Below are positions 10,640 to 62,965 of a stretch of DNA of 64,000 bases, in pieces. The first letter of the stretch is position 1. Each line of letters begins with the position of its first letter. Location of the stretch: contig CAISIO010000036.1 of the NCBI GenBank assembly GCA_903885445.1, positions 37,485 through 101,484 on the forward strand, written 5' to 3'. This DNA comes from Candidatus Staskawiczbacteria bacterium. Its GTDB lineage: Bacteria; Patescibacteriota; Minisyncoccia; Minisyncoccales; Staskawiczbacteraceae. A program made the translations under genes and the position numbers. The notes beneath the pieces are model-generated. The model had not been told where the DNA came from and did not search any database. It worked only from the letters and a program-made list of their open reading frames with translations.

Positions 10640-11821
10640 ATGAATTATAAAAAGATAATTTGGCCGGCTGTTTTAGTTATTTGTTCGGCCGTTTTTTTGG
10701 GGCTGGGCATTTGGATAGGTGTAAATAAAATCGCGTATCATGTTCCGCAGCCGGGAACAATTGACTTTTCGCTTTTTTGGGATGCATACGGAAAGCTGAA
10801 ACAAAATTTTATTAGCCCGTCGAAAATAGATAATAATAAAATACTTTATGGCGCAATCGAAGGAATGGCAAATTCGCTGGGAGACCCTTATACCAGTTTT
10901 TTTGACCCGAGCCAGGCGCAAAGATTCCAGCAGGATTTGTCGGGTTCCTTTAACGGGATAGGAGTGGAAGTTGGAGTAAAAAAAGATGTGCTCACGGTTA
11001 TAGCTCCACTAAAAGGAACTCCGGGACAAAAGGCAGGATTAAAATCCGGAGATATGATTGTGAAAATAGACGGCAAAGATTCGTCCAATATGACAGCCGA
11101 CGAAGCGGTGAGTTTAATCCGAGGAACAAAAGGAACAACCGTGACGTTAACTATTTTAAGGGACGGCTGGACTCAGACAAAAGACATTAAAATAATCAGG
11201 GACACCATAAAAGTCCCTTCTATCGAATGGTCTCTGAAAAACAACGACGTGGCATATATACAAATCTACCAGTTTGACGACACGCTTCCTTCTGATTTTA
11301 AGAAAGCCGCGCTTGAAATTGTGCAAAGCAAGGCAAAGAAAATCGTTCTAGACTTAAGAGATAATCCCGGAGGATATCTTGCCGCCGCCCAGGAAATTGC
11401 CGGATGGTTTTTAGGAAACGGGCAAACAGTCACGATTGAGGATTTTGGGAAAGCAAAAGCGCAACAGATTTATAAGGCCGAGGGCAACTCAGATTTTGAA
11501 AATTATCCGATGGTTATTTTAATCAACGAGGGTTCAGCGTCGGCGTCGGAAATTTTGGCCGGGGCGTTAAGAGATGACCGCAACATAAAACTCATTGGAA
11601 ATAAATCTTTTGGAAAAGGATGCGTACAGGAAGTTGTTGATTTACCGGGCGGCTCGTTTTTGAAGGTGACCATTGCCAACTGGCTGACTCCAAAAGGCAG
11701 CTCAATCTCGGATATCGGGCTTACTCCGGATGTAAAGATTGATGTGACTGAAAAAGACATTCAAGACAAAAAAGACCCGCAATTGGATAAAGCTCTTGAA
11801 ATAGTAGACAACTTAAAGTAG
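10640..11821 (+). CDS. ctpA: S41-family C-terminal processing peptidase
   Basis: N-terminal TM, PDZ domain (GLKSGDMIVKIDG), S41 catalytic motifs (LDLRDNPGGYL ... ILINEGSASASEILAGAL). Confidence 0.85.
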   Translation: MNYKKIIWPAVLVICSAVFLGLGIWIGVNKIAYHVPQPGTIDFSLFWDAYGKLKQNFISPSKIDNNKILYGAIEGMANSLGDPYTSFFDPSQAQRFQQDLSGSFNGIGVEVGVKKDVLTVIAPLKGTPGQKAGLKSGDMIVKIDGKDSSNMTADEAVSLIRGTKGTTVTLTILRDGWTQTKDIKIIRDTIKVPSIEWSLKNNDVAYIQIYQFDDTLPSDFKKAALEIVQSKAKKIVLDLRDNPGGYLAAAQEIAGWFLGNGQTVTIEDFGKAKAQQIYKAEGNSDFENYPMVILINEGSASASEILAGALRDDRNIKLIGNKSFGKGCVQEVVDLPGGSFLKVTIANWLTPKGSSISDIGLTPDVKIDVTEKDIQDKKDPQLDKALEIVDNLK

Positions 11822-11856
11822 AATACAAATATTGAGCTTAACCAAAATAAAAAAAC

Positions 11857-12324
11857 ATGAAAGTAATCATATTGCAAGACGTTGAAGGTCTTGGAAAAAA
11901 ATACGAATTAAAAGAAGTGAAAAGCGGATACGCAAGGAATTTTCTGCTTCCGCAAAAATTGGCCAGGGCCGCCACAAAGCCCGCCTTAAAATGGCTGGCC
12001 GACCAAAAAGAGGTTATCGATAAAGAAGTAGAAGAAGACCTGAAAAAAGCGCAGGCATTAGCTTCAGAACTCGACGGGCTGGAAGTTAATATCGCGGTGA
12101 AGGTTGGCGACGAGGGGCAGCTTTTCGAATCTATAAACAGCCAAAAAATTGTTGAGAAATTAAAGGAGCTGGGATTTGAGATTAAAAAATCTCAGGTCAA
12201 GCTGGAAAACCCGATAAAGGATGTTGGAGAATTCCCGGTGAGCATAAGCCTAGACCATAATTTAGAGTCAGAAATAAAAGTGATAATAACAGCGGAAAAA
12301 GTTGATGGAAAAATAGAAGAATAA
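11857..12324 (+). CDS. rplI: 50S ribosomal protein L9
   Basis: [32 protein letters not shown] matches L9 N-terminus. Confidence 0.9.
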
Positions 12325-15357: not shown

Positions 15358-15852
15358 CTAATTTGTTTTTGAGAGGGCTTTTGCCATATCCAGCCATTTT
15401 GGCGCCCGTGGCTTACTTTTGTATTTTGCAGATGATTTATGGATTTCTATAAGAGAGCATATTTCATTCTTTTTCCAGCCCGCCAGCGCAAGCCCTTTGT
15501 TTTTGTAGATTATTTCCACGCCTTTTGCCCAAAGCTCAAAATCTTTCTTTTTATTTTCCGCCAAACAGTTTTTCTTAAAAAAGGGGACTACGGTCTCGGC
15601 AATGTCGCTGATTTTCTGCACAGAGAACCTTGCCTGGTCTTTTGATAAAGTAATTTCTCCACAACCGATTTCTTTTTTTATTTTCTCTAAAATTTTAATA
15701 TCATTTCTGGGCCCTGTAACAATAAATTGCGCCTTCCACCTGTAGTAAGTGGGGGAGTTGGTTCTTTCATGCCGTGTGTCTTTGCGAAACTGCAAATCAA
15801 AACATCCGTCATTGTTCACCAATTTTGCCACGCTAAATTTTTCTGCCGCCAT
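15358..15852 (-). CDS. Free-standing LAGLIDADG-family homing endonuclease
   Basis: FSVAKLVNNDGCFDLQFRK resembles the LAGLIDADG motif (L[AV]GxxDxDG.F) in a ~160-aa single-motif protein. Own TTGACA-17-TAAAAT promoter upstream. Confidence 0.6.
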   Translation of the reverse strand: MAAEKFSVAKLVNNDGCFDLQFRKDTRHERTNSPTYYRWKAQFIVTGPRNDIKILEKIKKEIGCGEITLSKDQARFSVQKISDIAETVVPFFKKNCLAENKKKDFELWAKGVEIIYKNKGLALAGWKKNEICSLIEIHKSSAKYKSKPRAPKWLDMAKALSKTN

Positions 15853-15897
15853 AAATTACTTTTTTTATATTAGATTATTTTAGTATACGTTAATTTT

Positions 15898-15911
15898 AAT
15901 TGTGCGACAAG
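15898..15911 (-). repeat. 14-bp motif copy A (CTTGTCGCACAATT, minus orientation)
   Basis: One of 8 copies of TTTGTCGCACAATA-like motif. Lies in the -35/-10 spacer of the LAGLIDADG promoter. Confidence 0.7.
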
Positions 15912-16011
15912 TCAATGTCAAGCACTGTCTTCTTTATTAGGCAATTATCATTTCGCAGGCATATATTTTTTGACTTGTTTATTAATTTTTAAAACATGAT
16001 AAACTTAAAAT

Positions 16012-16719
16012 ATGTTAAGCGAAATTTTTGTTACGTCGTCTTTTGATCAATTGAAGGATTTATTTTTTCATCAATTGACGATATTGAATATCGCGTCTGC
16101 TTATATCTTGATGTATGTTATATACAAGGCATTTGGTCGTTATGTTTATTTTAAACCCCAGGAACATGCATCGAAAATAAATCGGACATTTCTCACTTTG
16201 TCAATAATTATTGTCTCAATTAACGTTATCTGGGGGATATCAAATTATTTGCCAGTTTTATCAGAATATCGCGGGTTTTATATGTTATGTGGTCTAGTTA
16301 TCCTTATGGCTCCGCTAAGTATTATTATGGATAGAATGATTTGGAAGTATGACTCTAACGGACGCAAAGAACGAAGAGATTGGCACTATTATTATTTGCA
16401 AATATCTAGGGATTATTATAAAACCAATATCACTAAAAGCGAGCGACATGATAACTATAGTGAAACATGGGAGGAGGAGGCGGTGGAAAGTACCGAAAAG
16501 AATATTCACTCTGATGCCCTGCTAAACATACTTGCGCTAGCTTTTTTTATTGGTGTCAGCGGGAAATGGGCTTATGAAAGTGCTAAAAATTATGGATACT
16601 TATCGTACATATTTTCTATTATTATTTGCCTTACAATCTCGAGTATTTTTTTGGATCATACTGTATTTTCCTGGATATCTTACATCGAAAAAGAAGGCCG
16701 AAAATTATTCAGAAAATAA
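16012..16719 (+). CDS. Hypothetical polytopic membrane protein
   Basis: 235-aa ORF, several TM helices, very AT-rich. Confidence 0.5.
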   Translation: MLSEIFVTSSFDQLKDLFFHQLTILNIASAYILMYVIYKAFGRYVYFKPQEHASKINRTFLTLSIIIVSINVIWGISNYLPVLSEYRGFYMLCGLVILMAPLSIIMDRMIWKYDSNGRKERRDWHYYYLQISRDYYKTNITKSERHDNYSETWEEEAVESTEKNIHSDALLNILALAFFIGVSGKWAYESAKNYGYLSYIFSIIICLTISSIFLDHTVFSWISYIEKEGRKLFRK

Positions 16720-16751
16720 AAATATTTATTGACTAAAAATTAAATAAAAAT

Positions 16752-17120
16752 ATGAAATTTTTACCAAATACATCAAAAGAATATCCGCTTCGTTTATTTA
16801 TCTATTGGTTAATAATATGGGCATTGTTATTCTTGTATTCCACAGTAATAATGTTGCCCAGAATATCAAGTAATGGATATGTTGTTAGAAAAGATGTGTG
16901 TTTGGAAGAAGCCCCTGCAGGCAGATTCGGCGAATATACTAAGTGCATTGATTATGGTGATCCCTATTACGTTCCGATCGGGAAGGAGCTTATGAATAAC
17001 TTTAAAAATAATGGGGTTGGTAGTTTTTTTGTTATACTTATAGTTAGTTTTGTTTTAATGGGTGGTAAAAGATTTGAAGAGAAACAAAGTAAAATTTTAG
17101 CAGAAAAATACGGCAAATGA
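16752..17120 (+). CDS. Hypothetical membrane protein
   Basis: 122-aa ORF, 2 TM helices. Confidence 0.45.
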   Translation: MKFLPNTSKEYPLRLFIYWLIIWALLFLYSTVIMLPRISSNGYVVRKDVCLEEAPAGRFGEYTKCIDYGDPYYVPIGKELMNNFKNNGVGSFFVILIVSFVLMGGKRFEEKQSKILAEKYGK

Positions 17121-17154
17121 AAAAATATATTAAATATTAAAAATACAGAATAGT

Positions 17155-17688
17155 ATGAATAAGAATGTTATCTATCTGATCTGTGCAGTATTATTAGTTG
17201 TCACTATTTGCAGTTTATTTTTTGCATACAATAATTCTAAAAATGTAGCTGTTGTTCCTAAACAAAATTTTGGTGGGGCTAATTTTTTTATGAATAATGT
17301 ATCGCAATGTCCTGATAATGTTAGCGTTCCTGATCAATTTTCTTGTTTGTATGAACTTGCAGACGCAACCGACAAGGAAGCAAATACTCTAGCTGAAAAA
17401 CTTATTTCTCAGGCGCCTATCCGCCTGGAAGAGATAACCATAAAAAAGACTGGACCAGTTTCATTTGTATATGGCGGAAGTGGTTTTTTAACCGATTTAC
17501 CCGTACAGGTTAAAAGGGCTCAACAAGCAAAGGATGAATATATAAAAAGTGTCTGCAACTTAACTTCAATGACTATTTATGCTGGTAGCGGGATGGATTT
17601 AGAGCAAAATGCTTGTAGGTATTACTTTACCAATGAATATCTACAAATATTAAAAAGCCTAGAAGGAGGTTTAACTGTGGAAGAATAA
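17155..17688 (+). CDS. Hypothetical secreted/membrane-anchored protein
   Basis: 177-aa ORF with N-terminal signal/anchor. Terminator hairpin AAAGCCACC..GGGTGGTTTTTT at 17765-17792. Confidence 0.5.
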   Translation: MNKNVIYLICAVLLVVTICSLFFAYNNSKNVAVVPKQNFGGANFFMNNVSQCPDNVSVPDQFSCLYELADATDKEANTLAEKLISQAPIRLEEITIKKTGPVSFVYGGSGFLTDLPVQVKRAQQAKDEYIKSVCNLTSMTIYAGSGMDLEQNACRYYFTNEYLQILKSLEGGLTVEE

Positions 17689-17728
17689 TTGAATGAAAAA
17701 GATATTTAATGTTAGTTTCGAGGACTTT

Positions 17729-17742
17729 CATTGTGCGACAGA
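17729..17742 (-). repeat. 14-bp motif copy B (TCTGTCGCACAATG, minus orientation, imperfect)
   Basis: Between stop of 17155..17688 and its terminator hairpin. Confidence 0.6.
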
Positions 17743-17805
17743 TTGAATGTACAGACTAAATAAAAGCCACCTTTTACTTTGGGTGGTTTTTTGGTAGAAT
17801 CATTT

Positions 17806-18151
17806 TAAGGAAGGAGGTGCGGTATGAAGAAACGCCGCGCTGCCTAAAAGAGGTCCGGAGTGGTGATCTCTCTCATAGCCCGTAAGGCTACAACAAGGCA
17901 AACGGCAAGTTCAAAGGTTCTCTTGCTACTTGTTGCGCGGAATAGCGTTGTACCCTCGTGAGAGATGTTAAACCAAGCTGCCTTCGGGAGATGGCAATCC
18001 CAACAGAGAGAAGGTAAACAACGAGAGGCTAACCATGCCTTTGGCCATGCATGCTGGCCCAGGTAAAGAGACAATTGTTCTCAGCACAGAGGAGCTAATG
18101 ATATGCTCTTCTACTTTCATGGGCGTGCATCTCTGTCCGCCCGTTTTTTTT
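17806..18151 (+). ncRNA. Candidate GC-rich structured RNA (~345 nt), class unknown
   Basis: Extended -10 TGGTAGAAT at 17792-17800. GC-rich segment with many nested helices (e.g. GAUCUCUCUCAU/GUGAGAGAUG, CAACAAG/CUUGUUG enclosing GCAAG/CUUGC, GGCCA/UGGCC, GAGGAGC/GCUCUUC, UUCG tetraloop). Ends in GGGCG..CGCCC + T8 terminator at 18121-18151. Only ORFs are a 7-codon MKKRRAA after AAGGAGG and an antisense junk ORF. Confidence 0.4.
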
Positions 18152-18164
18152 AATATATTGCGTT

Positions 18165-18767
18165 ATGAAAGAAGGGAAAAAATTTGGTGGGACTTTTTTG
18201 TTTTTCGATACGGAGACTACCGGGTTGCCGCTTAATTGGCGCGCGCCCGTAGATGATTTTTCTAATTGGCCCAGGATGGTGCAGATAGCTTGGGTGCTTT
18301 ATAAGGATGGAGTTAAACTTAGCAGCAGTAATTTTATAATTATGCCCGAAGGTTTTGAAATACCGGCTGAATCCTCAAAAATTCACGGCATAACAACTGA
18401 GCGAGCTAAAAAAGACGGCGTTTCTTTGCTGAAAGTTTTGAAGCAATTCCAAGGTTGCGCGGCAAAAGCAGACTTCTTGGTTGCTCATAATATGAGTTTT
18501 GACCAAATGATTGTCGGCGCAGAATTATTAAGAATGAATATGCAAAATTTCCTTGTTGCAAAAGACAGAATTTGTAATATGGAAATTTCTACAAATTTTT
18601 GCGCAATCTCAAGCGTGAACGGATACGGCGGTTACAAATGGCCCAAGCTTTCAGAACTCCACATGAAATTATTCGGCACGGAATTTGAAGATTCCCACAA
18701 TGCTATGGCCGACGTAGAGGCTACGGCAAAATGTTTTTGGGAAATGAAAAACCGCGGCATAATATAA
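18165..18767 (+). CDS. DEDDh 3'-5' exonuclease (DNA polymerase III epsilon/DnaQ-like)
   Basis: Exo I FFDTETTG, Exo II HNMSFDQ, Exo III HNAMADVEAT. Confidence 0.8.
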   Translation: MKEGKKFGGTFLFFDTETTGLPLNWRAPVDDFSNWPRMVQIAWVLYKDGVKLSSSNFIIMPEGFEIPAESSKIHGITTERAKKDGVSLLKVLKQFQGCAAKADFLVAHNMSFDQMIVGAELLRMNMQNFLVAKDRICNMEISTNFCAISSVNGYGGYKWPKLSELHMKLFGTEFEDSHNAMADVEATAKCFWEMKNRGII

Positions 18768-18795
18768 AAAAAGAGGGAATTGAGCCCTCTTTTTT

Positions 18796-18819
18796 ATCGG
18801 CTCAACGCGTTGACCCGAT
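18796..18819. other. Candidate dif-like tyrosine-recombinase core site (9-6-9: ATCGGCTCA-ACGCGT-TGACCCGAT)
   Basis: Near-perfect inverted arms around a 6-bp spacer, 13 nt from the xer gene stop, at the point where gene orientation flips. Confidence 0.4.
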
Positions 18820-18831
18820 GGATTGTTATGA

Positions 18832-19803
18832 TTATTTTTTATCAGGGTCGGAGTGGAATTGGTGGTGGATATCGCGGAGGCGCTTGTTGGTTACGTGCGT
18901 GTAGATTTGAGTGGTGGCGATGTTTGAGTGGCCTAGAAATTCTTGGATGCTGCGCAAGTCAACGCCTTGGTTTAACAAATCTGTCGCGTAGCTGTGGCGC
19001 AAAGTATGCGGAGTGGTGAAGATTGGCACGCCTGAAAGCAGAGCGTATTTTTTTACCATTCTTTCTATAGATCGCGGAGTAAGACGGGAGTCGGTGTTAT
19101 CGGCCTTATCGCGGAAGTTTATAAACAAGGCTTTTTGGTTGGCGTGCTTAACATCATTTCTTATTTCTAAATATTTTCTGATAAAGCCCAACGCGCGTTC
19201 AGAAAAATAAACAACTCGAGGTTTTCCGCCTTTGCCAATAACACCAAGCTCCATATCTTTTTTATCTTTTAAACTGTTAAACTGCTCAAGATTTAAAGAA
19301 ACCAGTTCGGCGATGCGAAGCCCTGTTGAGAAAAACGCCTCCAAAATAGCCCGGTCGCGGGTGCTTATATCGTCTTTTGGCTCTATGGAAGATAAAAGCT
19401 TACCAATCTGCTCTAAACTAAGGAATTTTATGCTTTTTAAGCCCCTGTCAGGCTTTGAGAGCGATATTTTGTCAGGGGGCAGTGAAAGTACGTCTTTTGC
19501 CACAAAGTAGCCTAAAAAGGCCCTTAAGGCGATTAAATAGTAGTTTTGGGTGCCTTTAGACAGCAATTTGCCGGTAGTTGGGCTAGGCGTGCGGGAAAGG
19601 TATAAACGGTAGGTCCAAACATGGTCAGAGGTCAGCTGATGGGGGAGTAAAGAGGATAATTTGTCCTGGTCTAGCCAATGAAAAAATTTCCCCAGATAAT
19701 TTTTATAATTCTCCTGAGTATTTTTTCTCAAACCTTTTTCAACTTCGCAATAATCTAAAAAATCTTGCAGATGTTCTTTTATTGGTTTTGTTGAGTTTTG
19801 CAT
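18832..19803 (-). CDS. Tyrosine site-specific recombinase, XerC/XerD family
   Basis: 323 aa. N-terminal core-binding domain, C-terminal catalytic domain with R...HTLRHSYAT...LGHSNIATTQIYTHV (R-H-R-Y signature region). Confidence 0.85.
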   Translation of the reverse strand: MQNSTKPIKEHLQDFLDYCEVEKGLRKNTQENYKNYLGKFFHWLDQDKLSSLLPHQLTSDHVWTYRLYLSRTPSPTTGKLLSKGTQNYYLIALRAFLGYFVAKDVLSLPPDKISLSKPDRGLKSIKFLSLEQIGKLLSSIEPKDDISTRDRAILEAFFSTGLRIAELVSLNLEQFNSLKDKKDMELGVIGKGGKPRVVYFSERALGFIRKYLEIRNDVKHANQKALFINFRDKADNTDSRLTPRSIERMVKKYALLSGVPIFTTPHTLRHSYATDLLNQGVDLRSIQEFLGHSNIATTQIYTHVTNKRLRDIHHQFHSDPDKK

Positions 19804-19945
19804 TTTTCCGGATTTTTAGAAGCACCACCTTAGATAACGTCGCTTTACCTACATTTTGCGACATAGCCTATATACTAATAATAGCCGTCCCCTAGACCCG
19901 TGTCAACACTCAAAAGCCTTAAAAGACGACCTAAACTACAACTTA

Positions 19946-20320: not shown

Positions 20321-20379
20321 ATAAAAAAATTTATAAGTTATTTGTATATTATATCACTCCCCTTTTTTACAAGCAAAAG

Positions 20380-20393
20380 TTTGTCGCACAATA
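20380..20393 (+). repeat. 14-bp motif copy C (TTTGTCGCACAATA; 22/23 identical with copy F over TTTGTCGCACAATAAGATA[G/A]ACC)
   Basis: Direct sequence comparison. Confidence 0.75.
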
Positions 20394-20489
20394 AGATAGA
20401 CCAAAACTTAAAGCGATTCTTAAAAAAGTTTGGGCGGCTGCTTTGGTAAGCAGCCGCCCCGAGAATCTGATGGTCAGATCCCCCCGTTG

Positions 20490-20654
20490 TCACCGTGAAG
20501 GTGACGTTGATGTGGCCGGCGTGATGCCGGCGTTTTCCAGGGCTTTTGCGATGCCCTGGCTGTGATCGCCCTGCATCTGGGTTGTTCTGCCAACTGCCCA
20601 AGCTCCGATGCAGAGCCCCGTGGCAATCACCAACATCGCAAGAATCCATTTCAT
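20490..20654 (-). CDS. Small secreted peptide (54 aa, signal peptide), GC-rich micro-island
   Basis: MKWILAMLVIATGLCIGAWAVG signal-like N-terminus. Terminator GGGCGGCTGC..GCAGCCGCCC + T-run at 20410-20455. Preferred over out-of-frame track ORF 20338..20649. Confidence 0.45.
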   Translation of the reverse strand: MKWILAMLVIATGLCIGAWAVGRTTQMQGDHSQGIAKALENAGITPATSTSPSR

Positions 20655-20769
20655 ATTCTGCCCTTTCGTTCGTGGTTCTATTGTGATTCAGCCTAGATTA
20701 ATTATAACATATTAATATAGTCATGTCAAGTAAATAAAAACACCCTGCGCGGGTGCTCTTACTTGCCGA

Positions 20770-20783
20770 TTTGTCGCACAATA
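20770..20783 (+). repeat. 14-bp motif copy D (TTTGTCGCACAATA)
   Basis: 8 nt beyond stop of 20792..21358 (minus) and before its CACCC..GGGTG terminator. Confidence 0.75.
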
Positions 20784-20791
20784 GAGTATTT

Positions 20792-21358
20792 TTACTGCCT
20801 TATTTCTTCCGCGCTTACGATATGGCGGGAATTTTTTAAAACTCTCAGTTGATATTGTATAGAGGGTCTATTTGCATCGTATTCGTTTTTACCTAAGGAT
20901 TTAAGATCGGAATTGTCGTAATAACCGCAAAAGACATCATAAGTATCGCCATTTATATCTATGCAGCGAGTGCAGGCGAGATTTCTGGGGTTATGCGGGC
21001 ACCAATGCAGGCTGATTTTGGCGGTTATTTTTGTTTGGTTTAGGCCGAAACCGTCCATGAAATAATTACTGAGCATCCATCCGAACAATAAAATACACAA
21101 CACGCTAGCGGTTAAAAATATTATTGAGAATTGCAGTTCATCCTTATTCTTTTTCTTTTTTTTCAGCAGAACAACCGCATAAAGCAATCCAAAAATTGAG
21201 GCGGCGAAAAAAACAATGTAAATAATGTTTTCGAAAAGCAGCGCTAATAGCTGGTATTTGCTAAACGGCAACAACAAAAAACCCAGCGCGCACGATGCCA
21301 AAAATGTGAGAATAAAAATCCATAACCCCCAAACTAAAGCCCTTCCTTTTGCAGTCAT
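20792..21358 (-). CDS. Hypothetical membrane protein with Cys-rich C-terminal domain
   Basis: 188-aa ORF, 3 TM helices then CPHNPRNLACTRCIDINGDTYDVFCGYYD. Confidence 0.5.
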   Translation of the reverse strand: MTAKGRALVWGLWIFILTFLASCALGFLLLPFSKYQLLALLFENIIYIVFFAASIFGLLYAVVLLKKKKKNKDELQFSIIFLTASVLCILLFGWMLSNYFMDGFGLNQTKITAKISLHWCPHNPRNLACTRCIDINGDTYDVFCGYYDNSDLKSLGKNEYDANRPSIQYQLRVLKNSRHIVSAEEIRQ

Positions 21359-37215: not shown

Positions 37216-37725
37216 TTATTTACTTATTTTTACCTTGGCTACGCGAATTATTTTCCCGTCCATTGTGTAGCCTTTTTGGGTTTCTTCAACGATAGTGCCA
37301 GGTTTGCCCCCCTTCGCCAAGGCTTCGGAGGGGCTAATCTCCTCGACCACCTCGTGGAAATTAGGGTCAAACGGCTTTCCGACAGTTTCTATAGGCTCAA
37401 TTCCCTCCTTTGAAAGAAAACTGGCTAATTGGTTTTTGATTTGGTTAAATCCATTTATCCATTTATTTTCCTTTAATTCCTCGGGAACATGCGACTCCGC
37501 CAAGTAAATATTATCTAAAATTGGAATTATCTTTAAAATTATTTCCGTATTTGCGTATTTAGCCAGTTCGCCAATTCTTTCCATTTCATCCTTTTTGTAG
37601 TTTATAAAATCAGCCCGCTCTCTTTTCCAGCCGTTTAAATATTCCTCGCACTTTGCTTTGGCTTGCGCCAGCTCTTCCCTCACCTTTTCTTCTTCTGTTA
37701 AATTTTTTTTATCTTCTTCTGCCAT
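37216..37725 (-). CDS. grpE: Nucleotide exchange factor GrpE
   Basis: Coiled-coil N-terminus, GrpE signature region. Confidence 0.85.
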   Translation of the reverse strand: MAEEDKKNLTEEEKVREELAQAKAKCEEYLNGWKRERADFINYKKDEMERIGELAKYANTEIILKIIPILDNIYLAESHVPEELKENKWINGFNQIKNQLASFLSKEGIEPIETVGKPFDPNFHEVVEEISPSEALAKGGKPGTIVEETQKGYTMDGKIIRVAKVKISK

Positions 37726-37726
37726 A

Positions 37727-38221
37727 TTAAAATTGTGATAACTTTTTAATTATTTGGTTAATTATATTCATATCTTGCCCGAAAGATGTTTTTGACGAGC
37801 CAAGAATATTTAAAATCTCAAATAAATCCTCACCCTCGGGCATATTGGAAATAGACAAAGTCATAGACGTTTCAGTAAGCGAGCTCATCAACTCTTGCGT
37901 TAAACGCATTTCCTGCTCTATCTGTTGGTGCGCTGATCTGATTTGTCGCACAATAAAACTGGCGAATTCATTCTCTTTTTCTTCGGCAATTTTTTCTGAT
38001 AAATATTTATAAGCTTTTTTGGTTGGGACCCTCCCCGCTGAAGTGTGGGGCTGTTCTATAAATCCCTGCTTGGCTAAAACCTGCAAATCATTTCTTATTG
38101 TTGCTCCACAAACATCCAAATCCGTAACCTTTTTTAAGGCCTTAGAGCTCACAGGTTCAGCTGTGCTTATATATTCTTTAACCAGAAATTCCAAAAGTTT
38201 TTCTTGTCTGTTTGTAATCAT
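37727..38221 (-). CDS. hrcA: HrcA-like heat-inducible repressor (short, 164 aa: winged-helix N-terminal domain only)
   Basis: ITNRQEKLLEFLVKEYISTAEPVSSKAL...ATIRNDLQVLAKQGFIEQPHTSAGRVPT matches HrcA N-terminus. Operon position upstream of grpE. Confidence 0.7.
   Translation of the reverse strand: MITNRQEKLLEFLVKEYISTAEPVSSKALKKVTDLDVCGATIRNDLQVLAKQGFIEQPHTSAGRVPTKKAYKYLSEKIAEEKENEFASFIVRQIRSAHQQIEQEMRLTQELMSSLTETSMTLSISNMPEGEDLFEILNILGSSKTSFGQDMNIINQIIKKLSQF
37943..37956 (+). repeat. 14-bp motif copy E (TTTGTCGCACAATA) inside hrcA coding sequence
   Basis: Encodes ...FIVRQIR... on the minus strand. Confidence 0.7.
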
Positions 38222-53941: not shown

Positions 53942-55126
53942 TTATTTAATTTCTTTCACTTCTGAAACAATTATACCATCAGAAACTTTTATATTCACGT
54001 CTTGCCCGATTTTTGTGTCGCTTGTCTTCCTGACTATTTTCCCGCCAACCGACGCAATACTATATCCTAGCTTTAAATTCCTTTCGGGATTATTAAGATT
54101 TACCACTTTCTCTATTCCATTCAGTTTTTCGCGTGTTTTGTCGCACAATAAGATAAACCCTGTAAAATAGCTTTCCATTTGCTTATCCAAATTGGCGCCA
54201 ATATTCAAGATATTGTTTTTAAAATTCTGCAAAGATATTTTAAACTTGTTTTCAATTGTTTTATACTTTTCAAAAATCAGCCCATAACTGGCAAAAATTT
54301 TCCTTTCAAACCTTTCCAGCAACAACAACGCCTGTTCCCACGATTCATTCAGCAAATTAGCCACGGCAGTTGGAGTTGATTCGCTTCTGTCAGCTGCCAT
54401 TGCAACAAGCGGAACATCTTTATCGTGCCCAATTCCCACCAGCACCGGCACAGGAAACCCCACCACCTCGCGCACCAGCAGTTCATTGTTAAAAGGCATC
54501 AGCGATTCCATTGACCCGCCCCCTCTGATAATAACCAGCACATCAATATCTTTTTTTCTAAATGTTTTAATTGACTCCAGCAAATCTTCCACCGCCCCCT
54601 GCCCCTCAACCCTTGAATCAATCATTTTAATATCAAACCCAAACTTGCCAATATTATTTAAAAAGTCGTGTATGACCGCCCCTTGTTTTGAGGTAATCAC
54701 CCCAATTTTGTGCGGATATTTTGGAATTGCCCTTTTATTCTCCAAATCAAAAAGCCCTTCTTTGGCCAGCTTGTTTTTCAATTCATCGTACTGTTTTTTT
54801 ATATCGCCCTCGCCAGCCAATTCAATTGTATCTGCAATAAAAGACAGCCTCCCGTTTGGAGCATAAATCTCCGGCGCTCCATAAGCCACAATTTTCTTCC
54901 CCGGCTCCAAAGTAATCCCAAACAATCTATACTTTGAGCTCCACATTATGCAATTCAACATCGTCCCATCTTTCTCATCCTTCAAAGTAAAATACATATG
55001 CCCTGTTGGCCCAGCCTTAGCCTCGCCCACCTCCCCCACAATCCTCGCCTTCATCCACTTCAAATCCGCATTAACCACCGTAATAAACTCCGATACAGAA
55101 TAAATTTTATCCTTTTCAATTTCCAT
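53942..55126 (-). CDS. xseA: Exodeoxyribonuclease VII large subunit
   Basis: N-terminal OB-fold (tRNA_anti-like) and ExoVII large-subunit catalytic region. Confidence 0.85.
   Translation of the reverse strand: MEIEKDKIYSVSEFITVVNADLKWMKARIVGEVGEAKAGPTGHMYFTLKDEKDGTMLNCIMWSSKYRLFGITLEPGKKIVAYGAPEIYAPNGRLSFIADTIELAGEGDIKKQYDELKNKLAKEGLFDLENKRAIPKYPHKIGVITSKQGAVIHDFLNNIGKFGFDIKMIDSRVEGQGAVEDLLESIKTFRKKDIDVLVIIRGGGSMESLMPFNNELLVREVVGFPVPVLVGIGHDKDVPLVAMAADRSESTPTAVANLLNESWEQALLLLERFERKIFASYGLIFEKYKTIENKFKISLQNFKNNILNIGANLDKQMESYFTGFILLCDKTREKLNGIEKVVNLNNPERNLKLGYSIASVGGKIVRKTSDTKIGQDVNIKVSDGIIVSEVKEIK
54137..54150 (+). repeat. 14-bp motif copy F (TTTGTCGCACAATA) inside xseA coding sequence
   Basis: Encodes ...FILLCDKT... 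on the minus strand. 22/23 identical to copy C over 23 nt. Confidence 0.7.
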
Positions 55127-60344: not shown

Positions 60345-60406
60345 TTATTTTACTCTTTATCTATTTCTTTTCAATCACCGCCATCGGGTCAACGAACTGA
60401 CCCGAT
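60345..60406. repeat. Promoter module + 24-bp palindrome, copy R2/P2 (ATCGGGTCA-ACGAAC-TGACCCGAT at 60383-60406)
   Basis: ~62 bp near-identical to 62462-62523. Confidence 0.75.
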
Positions 60407-60503
60407 AAAATTTGCAAGAAAAATGGCCCGGCAACCAGCATCCTTGCTGGTCATCGGGCCTTTGTGTCGCGCTCGCTATATGCGAGCAAAACCTGTTAGA
60501 GGA

Positions 60504-60878
60504 CTAACCCTCCTCATCGTCCTCGTCGAGGGGTCTGTCTTTCTTGCCTTCATCCTCATCGTCATCTTCCTCGTCCTCGTCATCGTCGGGGAAGAGACTC
60601 CAGTCTTCCTCTTCCTCGTCGTCGTCATCGTCAAGGTTCTGATCCAGGAGGTTCCCCTCGGCGAGCTCTCGGGCGGTCGCGGCGAGCCACTCACGGAGTT
60701 CTTCCGGCGTGACGCCCATCTCCTTGGCAGCACGGAGGAAAAGCTCTTTGTCGAGTTCCTCGGTACTGTCGTTCAAGGGAAGATCTTCGCCAGGGTATTT
60801 CTCCGGCTTCAGCTCCTTCTCTTTCCAGTTCCACTCGTCCACCGCCAGGCCAATCGTCTCAATCCTTGCCTTGTCCAC
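60504..60878 (-). CDS. Hypothetical highly acidic protein (GC-rich), paralog of 61192..61536
   Basis: GTG start with AAGGAGA SD. Shares ...VDEWNWKEKE...LFLRAAKEMGVTPEELREW... with neighbour. Poly-D/E tail. Terminator at 60420-60470. Confidence 0.45.
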   Translation of the reverse strand: MDKARIETIGLAVDEWNWKEKELKPEKYPGEDLPLNDSTEELDKELFLRAAKEMGVTPEELREWLAATARELAEGNLLDQNLDDDDDEEEEDWSLFPDDDEDEEDDDEDEGKKDRPLDEDDEEG

Positions 60879-61191: not shown

Positions 61192-61536
61192 TCATGCTCC
61201 CGCGCCTCGTCGGTCAGCTCTCTTCCCACACTGTTGGTCGGAGCGAGCGCGGCAAGGATGTCCGTCTGTGCTGAGCATATCAGCTATGCGCAGTGGACTC
61301 ACGTTTGGAGAAGGCGCTCCGAGCGGTCCGCACAGATCCTCCTCGAACCAATTGTGTAGTTCGTCTGGTTCGATGCTCATTTCCCGGGCCGCGCGGAGAA
61401 ACAATTTCCTGTTTTCCCCCTCAGTGTTGACGGTCAGTGCAGGAATGGCATTGGGAAAGTCTTTTCCCACTTGCTCCTTATCGTTCCATTCTTTCACCAG
61501 CCTTTCAATGTCGCCGAAACGCACATGTGTCATCAT
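61192..61536 (-). CDS. Hypothetical protein (GC-rich), paralog of 60504..60878
   Basis: AAGGAGA SD. ...VKEWNDKEQV...LFLRAAREMSIEPDELHNW... Confidence 0.45.
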   Translation of the reverse strand: MMTHVRFGDIERLVKEWNDKEQVGKDFPNAIPALTVNTEGENRKLFLRAAREMSIEPDELHNWFEEDLCGPLGAPSPNVSPLRIADMLSTDGHPCRARSDQQCGKRADRRGAGA

Positions 61537-61655: not shown

Positions 61656-61669
61656 TTTGTCGCACAATA
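61656..61669 (+). repeat. 14-bp motif copy H (TTTGTCGCACAATA)
   Basis: Between stop of HIT gene (61673) and its GCCGACA..TCGGC terminator. Confidence 0.75.
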
Positions 61670-61672
61670 TAA

Positions 61673-62128
61673 TTATTTTAGCAAAGCTATGATTTTATTT
61701 TTTTCTTCCTCGGATAAATCTTTGTATAACGGGTCTTTGAATTTTTCAGCTTTTTCTTGGAGCTCGTCCTGAAAATCTCTTGGCAAAAGATGAAAATGCA
61801 CGTGGCCAACATGCGTTTGGCTGTTTTTTACGTAGGGTTTAAAGTTTTGCCTGATATCGCACCCCGATGATAATTTTTCCAGTATCTTTCCCTGAAACTC
61901 CACAAGCAAATCAAAAATTTCGCTTTGTTCTTCTTTTGTCAGCTGGGAAATACTTGTGACATGCCTTTTAGGAATAATAAGTGTGTGCCCCGCAACCAAT
62001 CTTGGATTGCTCAAAATAACATAAGCATTCTCTGTCTCTTTAATAGTCCTGTCTTCCTTGTATATATTGCAAAACGGACAATCCATAATTTTATTTTCCA
62101 TTATTGATATACTTTGATAATTTTTCAA
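61673..62128 (-). CDS. HIT-family nucleotide hydrolase/transferase
   Basis: Histidine triad HVGHVHFHLLPR, ...HTLIIPKRHV... Confidence 0.8.
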   Translation of the reverse strand: MKNYQSISIMENKIMDCPFCNIYKEDRTIKETENAYVILSNPRLVAGHTLIIPKRHVTSISQLTKEEQSEIFDLLVEFQGKILEKLSSGCDIRQNFKPYVKNSQTHVGHVHFHLLPRDFQDELQEKAEKFKDPLYKDLSEEEKNKIIALLK

Positions 62129-62456
62129 TCATATCAGGCGAATCATCGTATTCTATAAAATTCTCGGTTAATTTGCCGATGGATTTTGAATATTTGCTTC
62201 CCGTCTTGAAAATGCAGACAACCGGTATGTTAAAAACATCAGCCCAGCCCAATTCAATGCCTTGCCCCGTTGAAGAAAATGATATTTCAGCCACCACAAG
62301 GTTGCTATCTTTAATTATATCTTTTGTGATAACGTCTTTGCCATTCTCGTGAGGAAAAGATATTTCATGCTGTTTATTTATCTCCGAATTTCTAAGCGGA
62401 ATATATATCTGATTTTCAAAATCAAAACTGCTTGAGTGGCTAACAAATATTTTCAT
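62091..62456 (-). CDS. Nucleoside 2-deoxyribosyltransferase-like protein
   Basis: 121-aa flavodoxin-like fold pattern MKIFVSHSS...VVAEIS...GQGIELGWADVFNIPVV. Confidence 0.5.
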   Translation of the reverse strand: MKIFVSHSSSFDFENQIYIPLRNSEINKQHEISFPHENGKDVITKDIIKDSNLVVAEISFSSTGQGIELGWADVFNIPVVCIFKTGSKYSKSIGKLTENFIEYDDSPDMIEKLSKYINNGK

Positions 62457-62461
62457 ATTGC

Positions 62462-62523
62462 TTATTTTACTCTTTATCTATTTCTTTTCAACCGATGCCA
62501 TCGGGTCAACGAACTGACCCGAT
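62462..62523. repeat. Promoter module + 24-bp palindrome, copy R3/P3 (ATCGGGTCA-ACGAAC-TGACCCGAT at 62500-62523)
   Basis: Near-identical to 60345-60406. Additional nested palindrome CCGATGCCATCGG. Confidence 0.75.
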
Positions 62524-62596
62524 AAAACAGGCAAAAAAAACAGCTTCACTCCAAGTGAGCCTTGATGTGAAGCCTGCGTCGCAACGAAGCGTCCGC

Positions 62597-62965
62597 CTAG
62601 AGGGCGAGCTTCTTGCACAATCGTGCGACATCACTGCTGACCTGCAATGCCCTGGCGCAGAACTCCTCTGGGCTTTTGCCCTCCTTGGCGGCCAGCTTTG
62701 CGATTACATCCTGCCTAAGGGAGTGAGTTTTGGCGATGACCTTCCCGGGTACGTCTGGCGAAACGCCAAGCGTAACGGCAATCTGGTCCAGGGTCGGCAT
62801 GGCACCGCCGGCTACCAGAACCTTCAAGGTCAAGTATCCTACGACGGCCCGGGACTGCTTGCCCCGATCCACTGGCGGACTCGCGGCCGGCTTAGCCTCG
62901 GTTTCGACTTCTGTTCCATTGGGCATGTTGCACCATTCCTTTTCTGTGGCCAATTGTTGCGACAC
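62597..62965 (-). CDS. Hypothetical small protein with possible HTH (GC-rich)
   Basis: ...PTLDQIAVTLGVSPDVPGKVIAK resembles a helix-turn-helix. Terminator GCTTCAC..GTGAAGC + T8. Confidence 0.4.
   Translation of the reverse strand: MSQQLATEKEWCNMPNGTEVETEAKPAASPPVDRGKQSRAVVGYLTLKVLVAGGAMPTLDQIAVTLGVSPDVPGKVIAKTHSLRQDVIAKLAAKEGKSPEEFCARALQVSSDVARLCKKLAL

Follow-up and report, generated by a model that had tools for sequence, protein, structure and literature searches.

Sequence evidence for a replication terminus with a probable Xer site in the xer leader, and for a separate repeated palindrome, in a Candidatus Staskawiczbacteria chromosome

Introduction

In the XerS/difSL system the recombination site adjoins its recombinase gene: difSL lies upstream of xerS and has been proposed to be situated between the promoter and the open reading frame (ORF), allowing autoregulation or guarding the gene against insertions (PMC1914069). 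Dif-like sites are found upstream of the xerA operons of haloarchaea (PMC11840125), and in Thermococcales dif is located away from xerA (PMC2958812). Here, a 64-kb stretch of the chromosome of Candidatus Staskawiczbacteria, a member of the Candidate Phyla Radiation (CPR, or Patescibacteria), was analyzed and is referred to throughout as the window. It carries one xer gene with two elements beside it, a 24-nt palindrome just downstream of xer, which an earlier note on this DNA had put forward as the chromosomal dif site, and a 28-bp element in the xer leader. The joint reading that we favor, with moderate confidence, is that the window spans a replication terminus, that the palindrome is not dif and that the leader element is the probable Xer site.

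The chromosome biology of the CPR is almost unstudied, and full-text literature searches returned no paper linking dif or Xer with this group. Should the leader element be dif, these bacteria would rely on one recombinase of XerC/D/A type that is fused to its site, a layout known to date from some archaea and from the XerS and XerH systems, which are unrelated. The element would also supply a precise, sequence-defined terminus marker with which to orient and check CPR assemblies, and, with its recombinase, a compact system of two parts open to testing in E. coli. The features that enter the comparison with known systems are as follows.

18832..19803, minus strand: xer, encoding a 323-aa XerC/D/A-like tyrosine recombinase (stop codon 18832-18834)
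19837..19864, minus strand: candidate dif, 28 bp in 11-6-11 layout, ATGTCGCAAAA (19864-19854)-TGTAGG (19853-19848)-TAAAGCGACGT (19847-19837)
19878..19906, minus strand: xer promoter TTGACA-17-TATTAT, near-consensus, with a counterpart upstream of xer in every relative

The locus resembles XerS/difSL in having one recombinase gene with the site immediately upstream of it, at the terminus, and in an xer gene that ends in its own terminator (PMC1914069). The asymmetric binding with a strong left arm that marks difSL (PMC5357621) would be expected here as well. By contrast, the recombinase is XerC/D/A-like, and the site is a 28-bp 11-6-11 sequence rather than a 31-bp sequence with an 11-bp centre. 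Archaeal XerA/dif offers a second parallel, that of a single recombinase acting on a 28-bp site of high arm complementarity (9/11 positions in P. abyssi, 8-9/11 in a sister clade of the loci compared here), with P. abyssi XerA as the nearest structure; the host here is a bacterium, however, and the window site is without the TAA-N6-TTA core. The dif sites of E. coli and B. subtilis share with the leader element the 11-6-11 layout and the position at the skew switch, and 10/11 positions of the E. coli XerC arm (GGTGCGCATAA) recur in the left arm of the sister-clade site (GGTTCGCATAA). In those two species, however, two recombinases are encoded far from dif, whereas here the site and a single xer gene are fused, and the leader element lacks an XerD-type arm (TTATGTTAAAT).

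Methods

The comparison set consisted of 23 genome loci with a related xer gene, taken as ∼20 kb each around xer, to which a sister Xer clade and closer relatives were added later; individual loci are denoted by L numbers. Xer homologues with 80-94% identity are plentiful and are labelled Candidatus Staskawiczbacteria. Reference dif sequences were taken from PMC3025954 and PMC2958812. The analysis covered sequences, copy number, conservation, skew and synteny, from which protein binding, recombination and autoregulation are predicted.

Results and Discussion

The Xer protein contains a Phage_integrase domain (PF00589) and an N-terminal SAM-like domain (PF02899) according to Pfam, and its alignment to P. 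abyssi XerA (4a8e) revealed the catalytic motifs GLR, GKGGK, HxLRHS, LGHS and IYT. The best NCBIfam models were XerD, XerC and XerA (224.6, 219.7 and 189.4 bits, respectively), all of them under their cutoffs. The score of 128.5 bits obtained with the XerS model, for which the cutoff is 267, places the protein outside the XerS family. E. coli XerD joins P. abyssi XerA as the nearest solved structure. Only one xer gene was present in each 20-kb locus and in the 64-kb window. Look-ups of identical proteins for the Xer, exonuclease, GNAT and His-phosphatase sequences of the window returned no record.

The leader element is located ∼13 nt after the -10 hexamer of the xer promoter, with 33 nt between it and the ATG, and would occupy about +5 to +33 of the predicted xer transcript; its position relative to xer is the same in all clades. 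In 24 loci it appears as 21 contiguous near-invariant positions that span the left arm and the 6-bp centre and reach 4 nt into the right arm, between drifting flanks. A 19-nt core recurs unchanged, once per locus, in 21 loci; the window too has a single exact copy of it, and the full site likewise occurs there once. Homologous variants were found at the same position in L022, L046, L070, L144, L146 and L148, in which Xer identity has fallen to 55-68%; these include GGTTCGCATAA-TTATAG-TTAAGCGCACC in L022 (sister clade), AGTTCGCATAA-TTATAG-TTAAGCGAACA in L046 and GGTTCGTAAAA-TGTTGG-TAAAGCGAACC in L070. The outer arms covary between clades (GTCGC/GCGAC versus GTTCGC/GCGAAC). Arm complementarity was 7/11 in the window, 4-7/11 across its clade and 8-9/11 in the sister clade, to be compared with 6/11 for the dif sites of E. 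coli and B. subtilis and 9/11 for that of P. abyssi. The L022 site agrees with E. coli dif at 18/28 positions, including the 10/11 of the XerC arm noted above. In addition, the leader element lies inside the skew-maximum plateau of the window, and in 13 of 18 loci the maximum is ∼140-240 bp from it.

On balance, these data argue for the leader element at 19837-19864 as the chromosomal dif used by Xer, an assignment that we regard as somewhat better than an even bet. The earlier note's idea of a dif site beside a single xer gene is plausible, but the site it chose was the wrong one: the leader holds a dif-like 11-6-11 sequence of 28 bp ∼1 kb from the palindrome, and this is the better candidate. 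The region would then probably be home to a module of promoter, dif and xer that varies the single-recombinase arrangement in a new way. In the mechanism envisaged, Xer would bind strongly to the left arm, which is invariant, and cooperatively to the degenerate right arm, would resolve chromosome dimers at the leader element and, when seated on its own leader, would limit xer transcription.

Several properties of the element weigh against its assignment as dif. The window site agrees with E. coli dif at only 15/28 positions, a match that is not significant alone: 1,164 window 28-mers do as well, and the site ranks at about 200-480 of 128,000. The inner arms read AAAA/TAAA, not the TAA-N6-TTA typical of dif, and the outer right arm is variable among close relatives, which would also fit a one-sided operator. 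The main alternative to dif is indeed a pure operator, in which the element serves only as the xer operator or leader, bound by Xer or by another factor, with the true dif elsewhere. A position at about +5 to +33 is the classic one for a repressor, the confinement of invariance to the left arm and centre, with only 4 nt of the right arm included, would suit such a role, and the left arm resembles a dispersed motif (TGTCGCACAAT, described below) that overlaps the promoter of a LAGLIDADG gene too. A bare operator would leave unexplained, however, the 11-6-11 layout with arms that covary between clades and that become dif-like in the sister clade, as well as the coincidence with the skew maximum; no better dif-like 28-mer is conspicuous in the window, and the uncompensated changes in the right arm show that the element is not an RNA hairpin. 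We consider the pure operator unlikely, though deserving of serious attention, and retain dif as the preferred assignment of the leader element.

Three further candidates were rejected. An RNA element in the xer leader found no Rfam match even at E<=1, and the right-arm changes are, as stated, uncompensated. A small upstream ORF in the leader was excluded by its start codon, which reads ACG instead of ATG in L004, L009 and L012. In the search for a canonical dif elsewhere in the window, the top 28-mers, among them one at 37494 with 19/28 matches to B. subtilis dif, did no better than the tail expected by chance.

A number of separate observations touch on Xer or its site. An FtsK with alpha, motor and gamma domains is encoded on a patescibacterial contig (L156, 3443-5599), which makes Xer recombination guided by FtsK at least possible in patescibacteria. 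In L019 (9882-9990) an inverted, partly degenerate second copy of the leader element, CGACGGTTTACCTAgccaagATTTTaCaACAT, follows 24 nt after the first and extends the leader to ∼130 nt. The 3' end of xer in L046 (4797-5348) is broken by a degenerate LAGLIDADG frame with internal stops; a remnant of the original xer C terminus (...HHQFHSGPDKK and stop) is found after this frame, and the Xer protein has gained a new C-terminal tail. An exact 23-nt match to the leader site, TATGTCGCAAAATGTAGGTAAAG, was found inside an NAD-epimerase-like gene of a 53-kb viral contig (L152 4370-4392; IMGVR_UViG_3300032053_000105). A match to the 19-mer is expected ∼0.8 times by chance and the extra 4 nt carry p ∼0.006; this sequence could be an attP mimic or a coincidence.

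That the window spans a replication terminus, as the earlier note had proposed, was borne out by several lines of evidence. The cumulative G-C curve has its maximum at 19663, on a plateau of 19599-19884. GC skew is positive to the left and negative to the right of xer, and it flips there together with gene strand in the window and in 21/21 related loci with the leader site. The GC3 skew, read on the plus strand, was +0.017 for plus-strand genes and +0.114 for minus-strand genes on the left of xer, and -0.182 and -0.036, respectively, on the right. Given that its sign is the same for both gene strands on each side, this skew follows the side of replication and not the coding strand. The gene-orientation switch near xer is real as well: right of 19.8 kb the long ORFs are on the minus strand, where ORFs have Pfam matches, and plus-strand ORFs in that part have none. 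Synteny extends the picture to relatives with only ∼55% Xer identity, in which a mur/ftsW/murG/gltX block runs into xer and a uppS/pyrG/rplI/ctpA block approaches from the opposite side. Forks travelling along the G-rich strand converge at xer, which makes this region a terminus.

Between the two syntenic blocks, downstream of xer, lies a variable stretch with LAGLIDADG, Y1 transposase, PD-(D/E)XK and PIF1 genes. In L148 this region contains, just downstream of xer at 11572-12006, a Y1_Tnp transposase gene (IS200/IS605-type or REP-associated), a possible link to short dispersed repeats.

The palindrome, its two further copies in the window and their immediate surroundings comprise the following features.

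18165..18767, plus strand: DEDDh (RNase_T/DnaQ-like) exonuclease gene, 200 aa (Pfam)
18767..18795, no strand: bidirectional intrinsic terminator of the exonuclease and xer genes, AAAAAAGAGGG-7-CCCTCTTTTTT, -11.7/-12.5 kcal/mol
18796..18819, no strand: palindrome copy 1, ATCGGCTCA-ACGCGT-TGACCCGAT, one arm mismatch; full 24-mer ATCGGCTCAACGCGTTGACCCGAT
60383..60406, no strand: palindrome copy 2, perfect arms, between the terminator and the promoter of a GNAT/His-phosphatase operon
62500..62523, no strand: palindrome copy 3, perfect arms, between the terminator and the promoter of a 121-aa/HIT operon
60345..60423, no strand: 79-nt direct repeat (promoter, palindrome and T-run), partner of 62462..62540
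62462..62540, no strand: second copy of the 79-nt direct repeat, holding palindrome copy 3

Copy 1 is present as previously described, beside convergent dnaQ-like and xer genes, and fills most of the 64-nt spacer between them. It lies 12 nt past the xer stop codon and directly abuts the bidirectional terminator, which itself follows the stop of the exonuclease gene. Its arms are complementary at 8/9 positions and its ACGCGT spacer is itself palindromic, such that the 24-mer is self-complementary at 22/24 positions. The perfect-arm form seen in copies 2 and 3 is ATCGGGTCA-N6-TGACCCGAT. The pattern ATCGG(G/C)TCA-N6-TGACCCGAT occurs 3 times in the window against 0.01 expected, a recurrence that the earlier note had missed; across the copies the arms are conserved at 17/18 positions, and spacer and flanks have diverged. 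All three share the layout TTTT-palindrome-GG directly after the T-run of an intrinsic terminator. The inverted arms and 6-bp spacer that had suggested a recombinase site are indeed there, but the bare 9-6-9 geometry with at least 8/9 pairs is common (27 observed versus 12 expected in the window); 24-nt palindromes with at least 11/12 pairs were found 3 times versus 0.27 expected.

As the chromosomal dif, cut by the adjacent Xer, the palindrome is scarcely tenable. In its favor, it adjoins xer, lies within ∼1 kb of the skew and orientation switch and has inverted arms around a 6-bp spacer. Its conservation argues otherwise: no palindrome was found downstream of xer in the 23 genome loci or in L150 and L151, where Xer is 81-94% identical, and it is missing even from the relatives at 92-94%. 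L001 (94% Xer identity) and L150 (92%) keep the terminator hairpin directly after the xer stop, and the palindrome is therefore extra sequence in the lineage of the window; a near-identical hairpin is also kept after xer in L017 and L148. A site present in 3 copies in 64 kb would be unexpected for dif, the arms are spaced 9-6-9 rather than 11-6-11, and the match to reference dif sites (8/28 positions) is below the window mean of 9.3. Its placement is ambiguous: it is ∼850 bp from the skew maximum and beyond the plateau that includes the leader element. Finally, it stands at the border of a lineage-specific insertion, and a conserved dif-like site is available in the leader. Two of the outcomes that the earlier note had named as refuting its proposal, absence from close relatives and a dif site of 28 bp elsewhere (here a dif-like one), were both observed.

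The exonuclease gene is the final gene of this lineage-specific block (∼15.9-18.8 kb). Four genes within 16012-18767 (16012-16719, 16752-17120, 17155-17688 and the exonuclease gene, 18165-18767) have no homologue in any related xer locus; copy 1, an orphan, therefore ends a ∼3-kb lineage-specific block of four genes.

On RNA, copy 1 would add at most a second hairpin to the conserved terminator. Such a role, as an extra hairpin of the 3'-untranslated region stacked on the terminator and devoid of function at the DNA level, is a doubtful alternative, although the sequence can form a hairpin adjacent to that of the terminator (-10 kcal/mol on the xer transcript, -7.4 kcal/mol on the opposite strand), and such hairpins are frequent in convergent intergenic regions. 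The xer strand has AAAAAAG and no U-run after the hairpin, as an intrinsic terminator would have, and on the other strand the palindrome lies beyond the U-run of the terminator. Furthermore, a hairpin would have no need of arms conserved at 17/18 positions amid unrelated flanks.

Copies 2 and 3 precede the TTGAAA-16-TAAAAT promoters of two accessory operons, one for a GNAT protein and a histidine phosphatase (copy 2) and one for the 121-aa protein and a HIT protein (copy 3). In both cases the palindrome is centred ∼55 nt upstream of the start of the near-identical promoters. The two operons share their 5' end, comprising palindrome and promoter, and also their 3' end (80% over 55 nt). From this arrangement we conclude that the palindrome is best read as a repeated protein-binding element bordering accessory units, putatively bound by a dimeric DNA-binding protein; it may serve either a transcription factor or a cassette recombinase.

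Two findings weaken the case for a role at promoters. Copies 2 and 3 sit within a 79-nt duplication, so that their evidence for such a role is not independent. In addition, a 757-nt metagenomic contig from another sample (L153, 1-757) links flanking sequence of copy 2 to that of copy 3 (window positions 60543..60383 to 62523..61904), with the crossover within a 31-nt identity block that holds the palindrome, which fits a recombination site equally as well as a transcription-factor site. A junction of this kind is the expected product of recombination between the 79-nt repeats, by way of an excised circle, a tandem duplication or a cassette swap.

The palindrome family might consist of site-specific recombination sites that bound exchangeable cassettes after the logic of pdif or attC, copy 1 ending the 3-kb insert. 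The 9-6-9 layout with conserved arms and a free spacer, the placement of all copies at the borders of gene blocks, the shared 5' and 3' blocks of the two operons and the exact copy 2/3 recombinant junction in L153 are consistent with this possibility. Homologous recombination or an assembly join in the 79-nt repeat would nevertheless give an identical junction, and the junction is a single observation. The window showed no second recombinase, the palindrome arms are unlike those of the Xer leader element, and the palindrome pattern had no match in 152 loci or in viral contigs. Homologues of the 121-aa gene occur in unrelated contexts, and the palindrome was not there. Recombination sites of this type are thus improbable, if less so than a plain RNA hairpin, and the more general assignment of the palindrome as a protein-binding element is preferred. 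The pdif modules of Acinetobacter (PMC12907356, PMC11705084) are likewise accessory modules bounded by short inverted repeats of recombinase type, and the analogy could possibly cover the palindrome family and the L153 junction; pdif sites, however, are dif-like and use XerC/D, and the palindrome arms resemble neither dif nor the leader site.

The part of the window with copies 2 and 3 also contains G+C-rich small ORFs (57.9-59.2 kb, 60504-60878, 61192-61536 and 62597-62965) in a genome of 40% G+C. Two of these are paralogous (LFLRAA.EM..P.EL..W), and a long acidic tail ends one of them. Accessory operons (NUDIX, GNAT, HIT and PRTase) with common promoter and 3'-end blocks are interspersed among these ORFs.

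The dispersed motif to which the left arm of the leader element bears a resemblance is 12-14 nt in length (TTGTCGCACAATAA). Exact matches to its 11-mer core, TGTCGCACAAT, number 7 in the window (0.01 expected), and the motif was seen several times per 20-kb locus in L001-L023, L046 and L146-L151. Its positions in the window, and that of a conserved gene associated with it, are given below.

15358..15852, minus strand: conserved free-standing LAGLIDADG_1 gene, promoter region 15870-15915 with the motif at 15899-15909
15899..15909, minus strand: motif TGTCGCACAAT, left-side orientation, in the LAGLIDADG promoter
17730..17740, minus strand: motif, left-side orientation
20382..20392, plus strand: motif, right-side orientation
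20772..20782, plus strand: motif, right-side orientation, 9 nt after a gene stop and before the terminator of that gene
37944..37954, plus strand: motif inside an HrcA-like gene, frame encoding I-V-R-Q
54139..54149, plus strand: motif inside xseA, frame encoding I-V-R-Q
61658..61668, plus strand: motif downstream of the HIT gene stop and ahead of the terminator of that gene
about 59330, plus strand: motif with one mismatch

The motif is polar, and its orientation flips at the xer leader: with xer set on the plus strand, 0 plus and 37 minus copies were counted on the left and 50 plus and 2 minus copies on the right. Motif orientation and gene orientation are confounded, both flipping at the same place. 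The usual layout consists of a gene stop, 3-15 nt, TTATTGTGCGACAA on the sense strand and a terminator hairpin; intragenic copies are always in the frame encoding I-V-R-Q. The few exceptions in orientation flank the LAGLIDADG gene, which lies 0.1-7 kb from xer in every locus having it and carries one or two motif copies in its promoter, often with an inverted copy after its stop. L144 and L145 have neither the motif nor the LAGLIDADG gene.

A KOPS- or Ter-like role is possible for the motif, as is a role at 3' ends. Like the KOPS/AIMS sequences read by FtsK, the complement of the motif, TTATTGTGCGACAA, is carried by the G-rich (leading) strand and is directed at the candidate dif from either side; unlike them, it is a motif of 12-14 nt and not a G-rich octamer, and it is mostly intergenic, just after stop codons. 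In Tus/Ter and RTP/Ter, opposed groups of polar sites flank the terminus as they do here. TerB is located in the tus promoter, and one or two motif copies are found here in the promoter of the terminus-linked LAGLIDADG gene. The site density is, however, far higher than in those systems, and no Tus or RTP homologue was identified. Purely by inference, the LAGLIDADG protein might bind the motif; Xer is another possible reader, because the motif resembles its left arm. A self-contained terminus module can be imagined on this basis, with promoter, dif and xer placed between opposed arrays of the 12-14-bp motif that would be read by the LAGLIDADG protein (most plausibly) or by Xer, and it would amount to a new Tus/Ter-like or KOPS-like system in the CPR; at present we regard so elaborate a scheme as speculative and rather unlikely. 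A loose precedent comes from B. subtilis, where dispersed sites bound by XerD unload SMC at the terminus (Karaboja et al. 2021, cited in PMC10945525). Together with the operons bounded by the palindrome, the polar motif offers leads on termination, polarity and cassette turnover in very small genomes.

Other roles for the motif were rejected. It is not a general promoter element, all copies of promoter type driving the same orthologous LAGLIDADG gene. Nor does it covary with the leader arm: CATAAT stands in both motif and arm in L022, whereas CACAAT is retained in L146 and L148 beside a type II leader. A metagenome scan for the 14-mer motif returned mostly chance matches in unrelated organisms, and literature string searches for the motif returned primers only.

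The block closed by palindrome copy 1 has a counterpart on the other side of xer, where a 188-aa gene (20792-21358) is likewise without homologue in any related xer locus; the genes at 15910-18820 and 20338-21358 are thus read, by comparison with relatives, as lineage-specific insertions on both sides of xer. Two gaps of ∼470 nt in these regions, 17689-18164 and 20321-20791, are without a convincing ORF and without a counterpart in relatives, and neither gave a match in Rfam even at E<=1. The polar motif is present once in the first gap, which closes with a terminator-like hairpin (18120-18139), and twice in the second.

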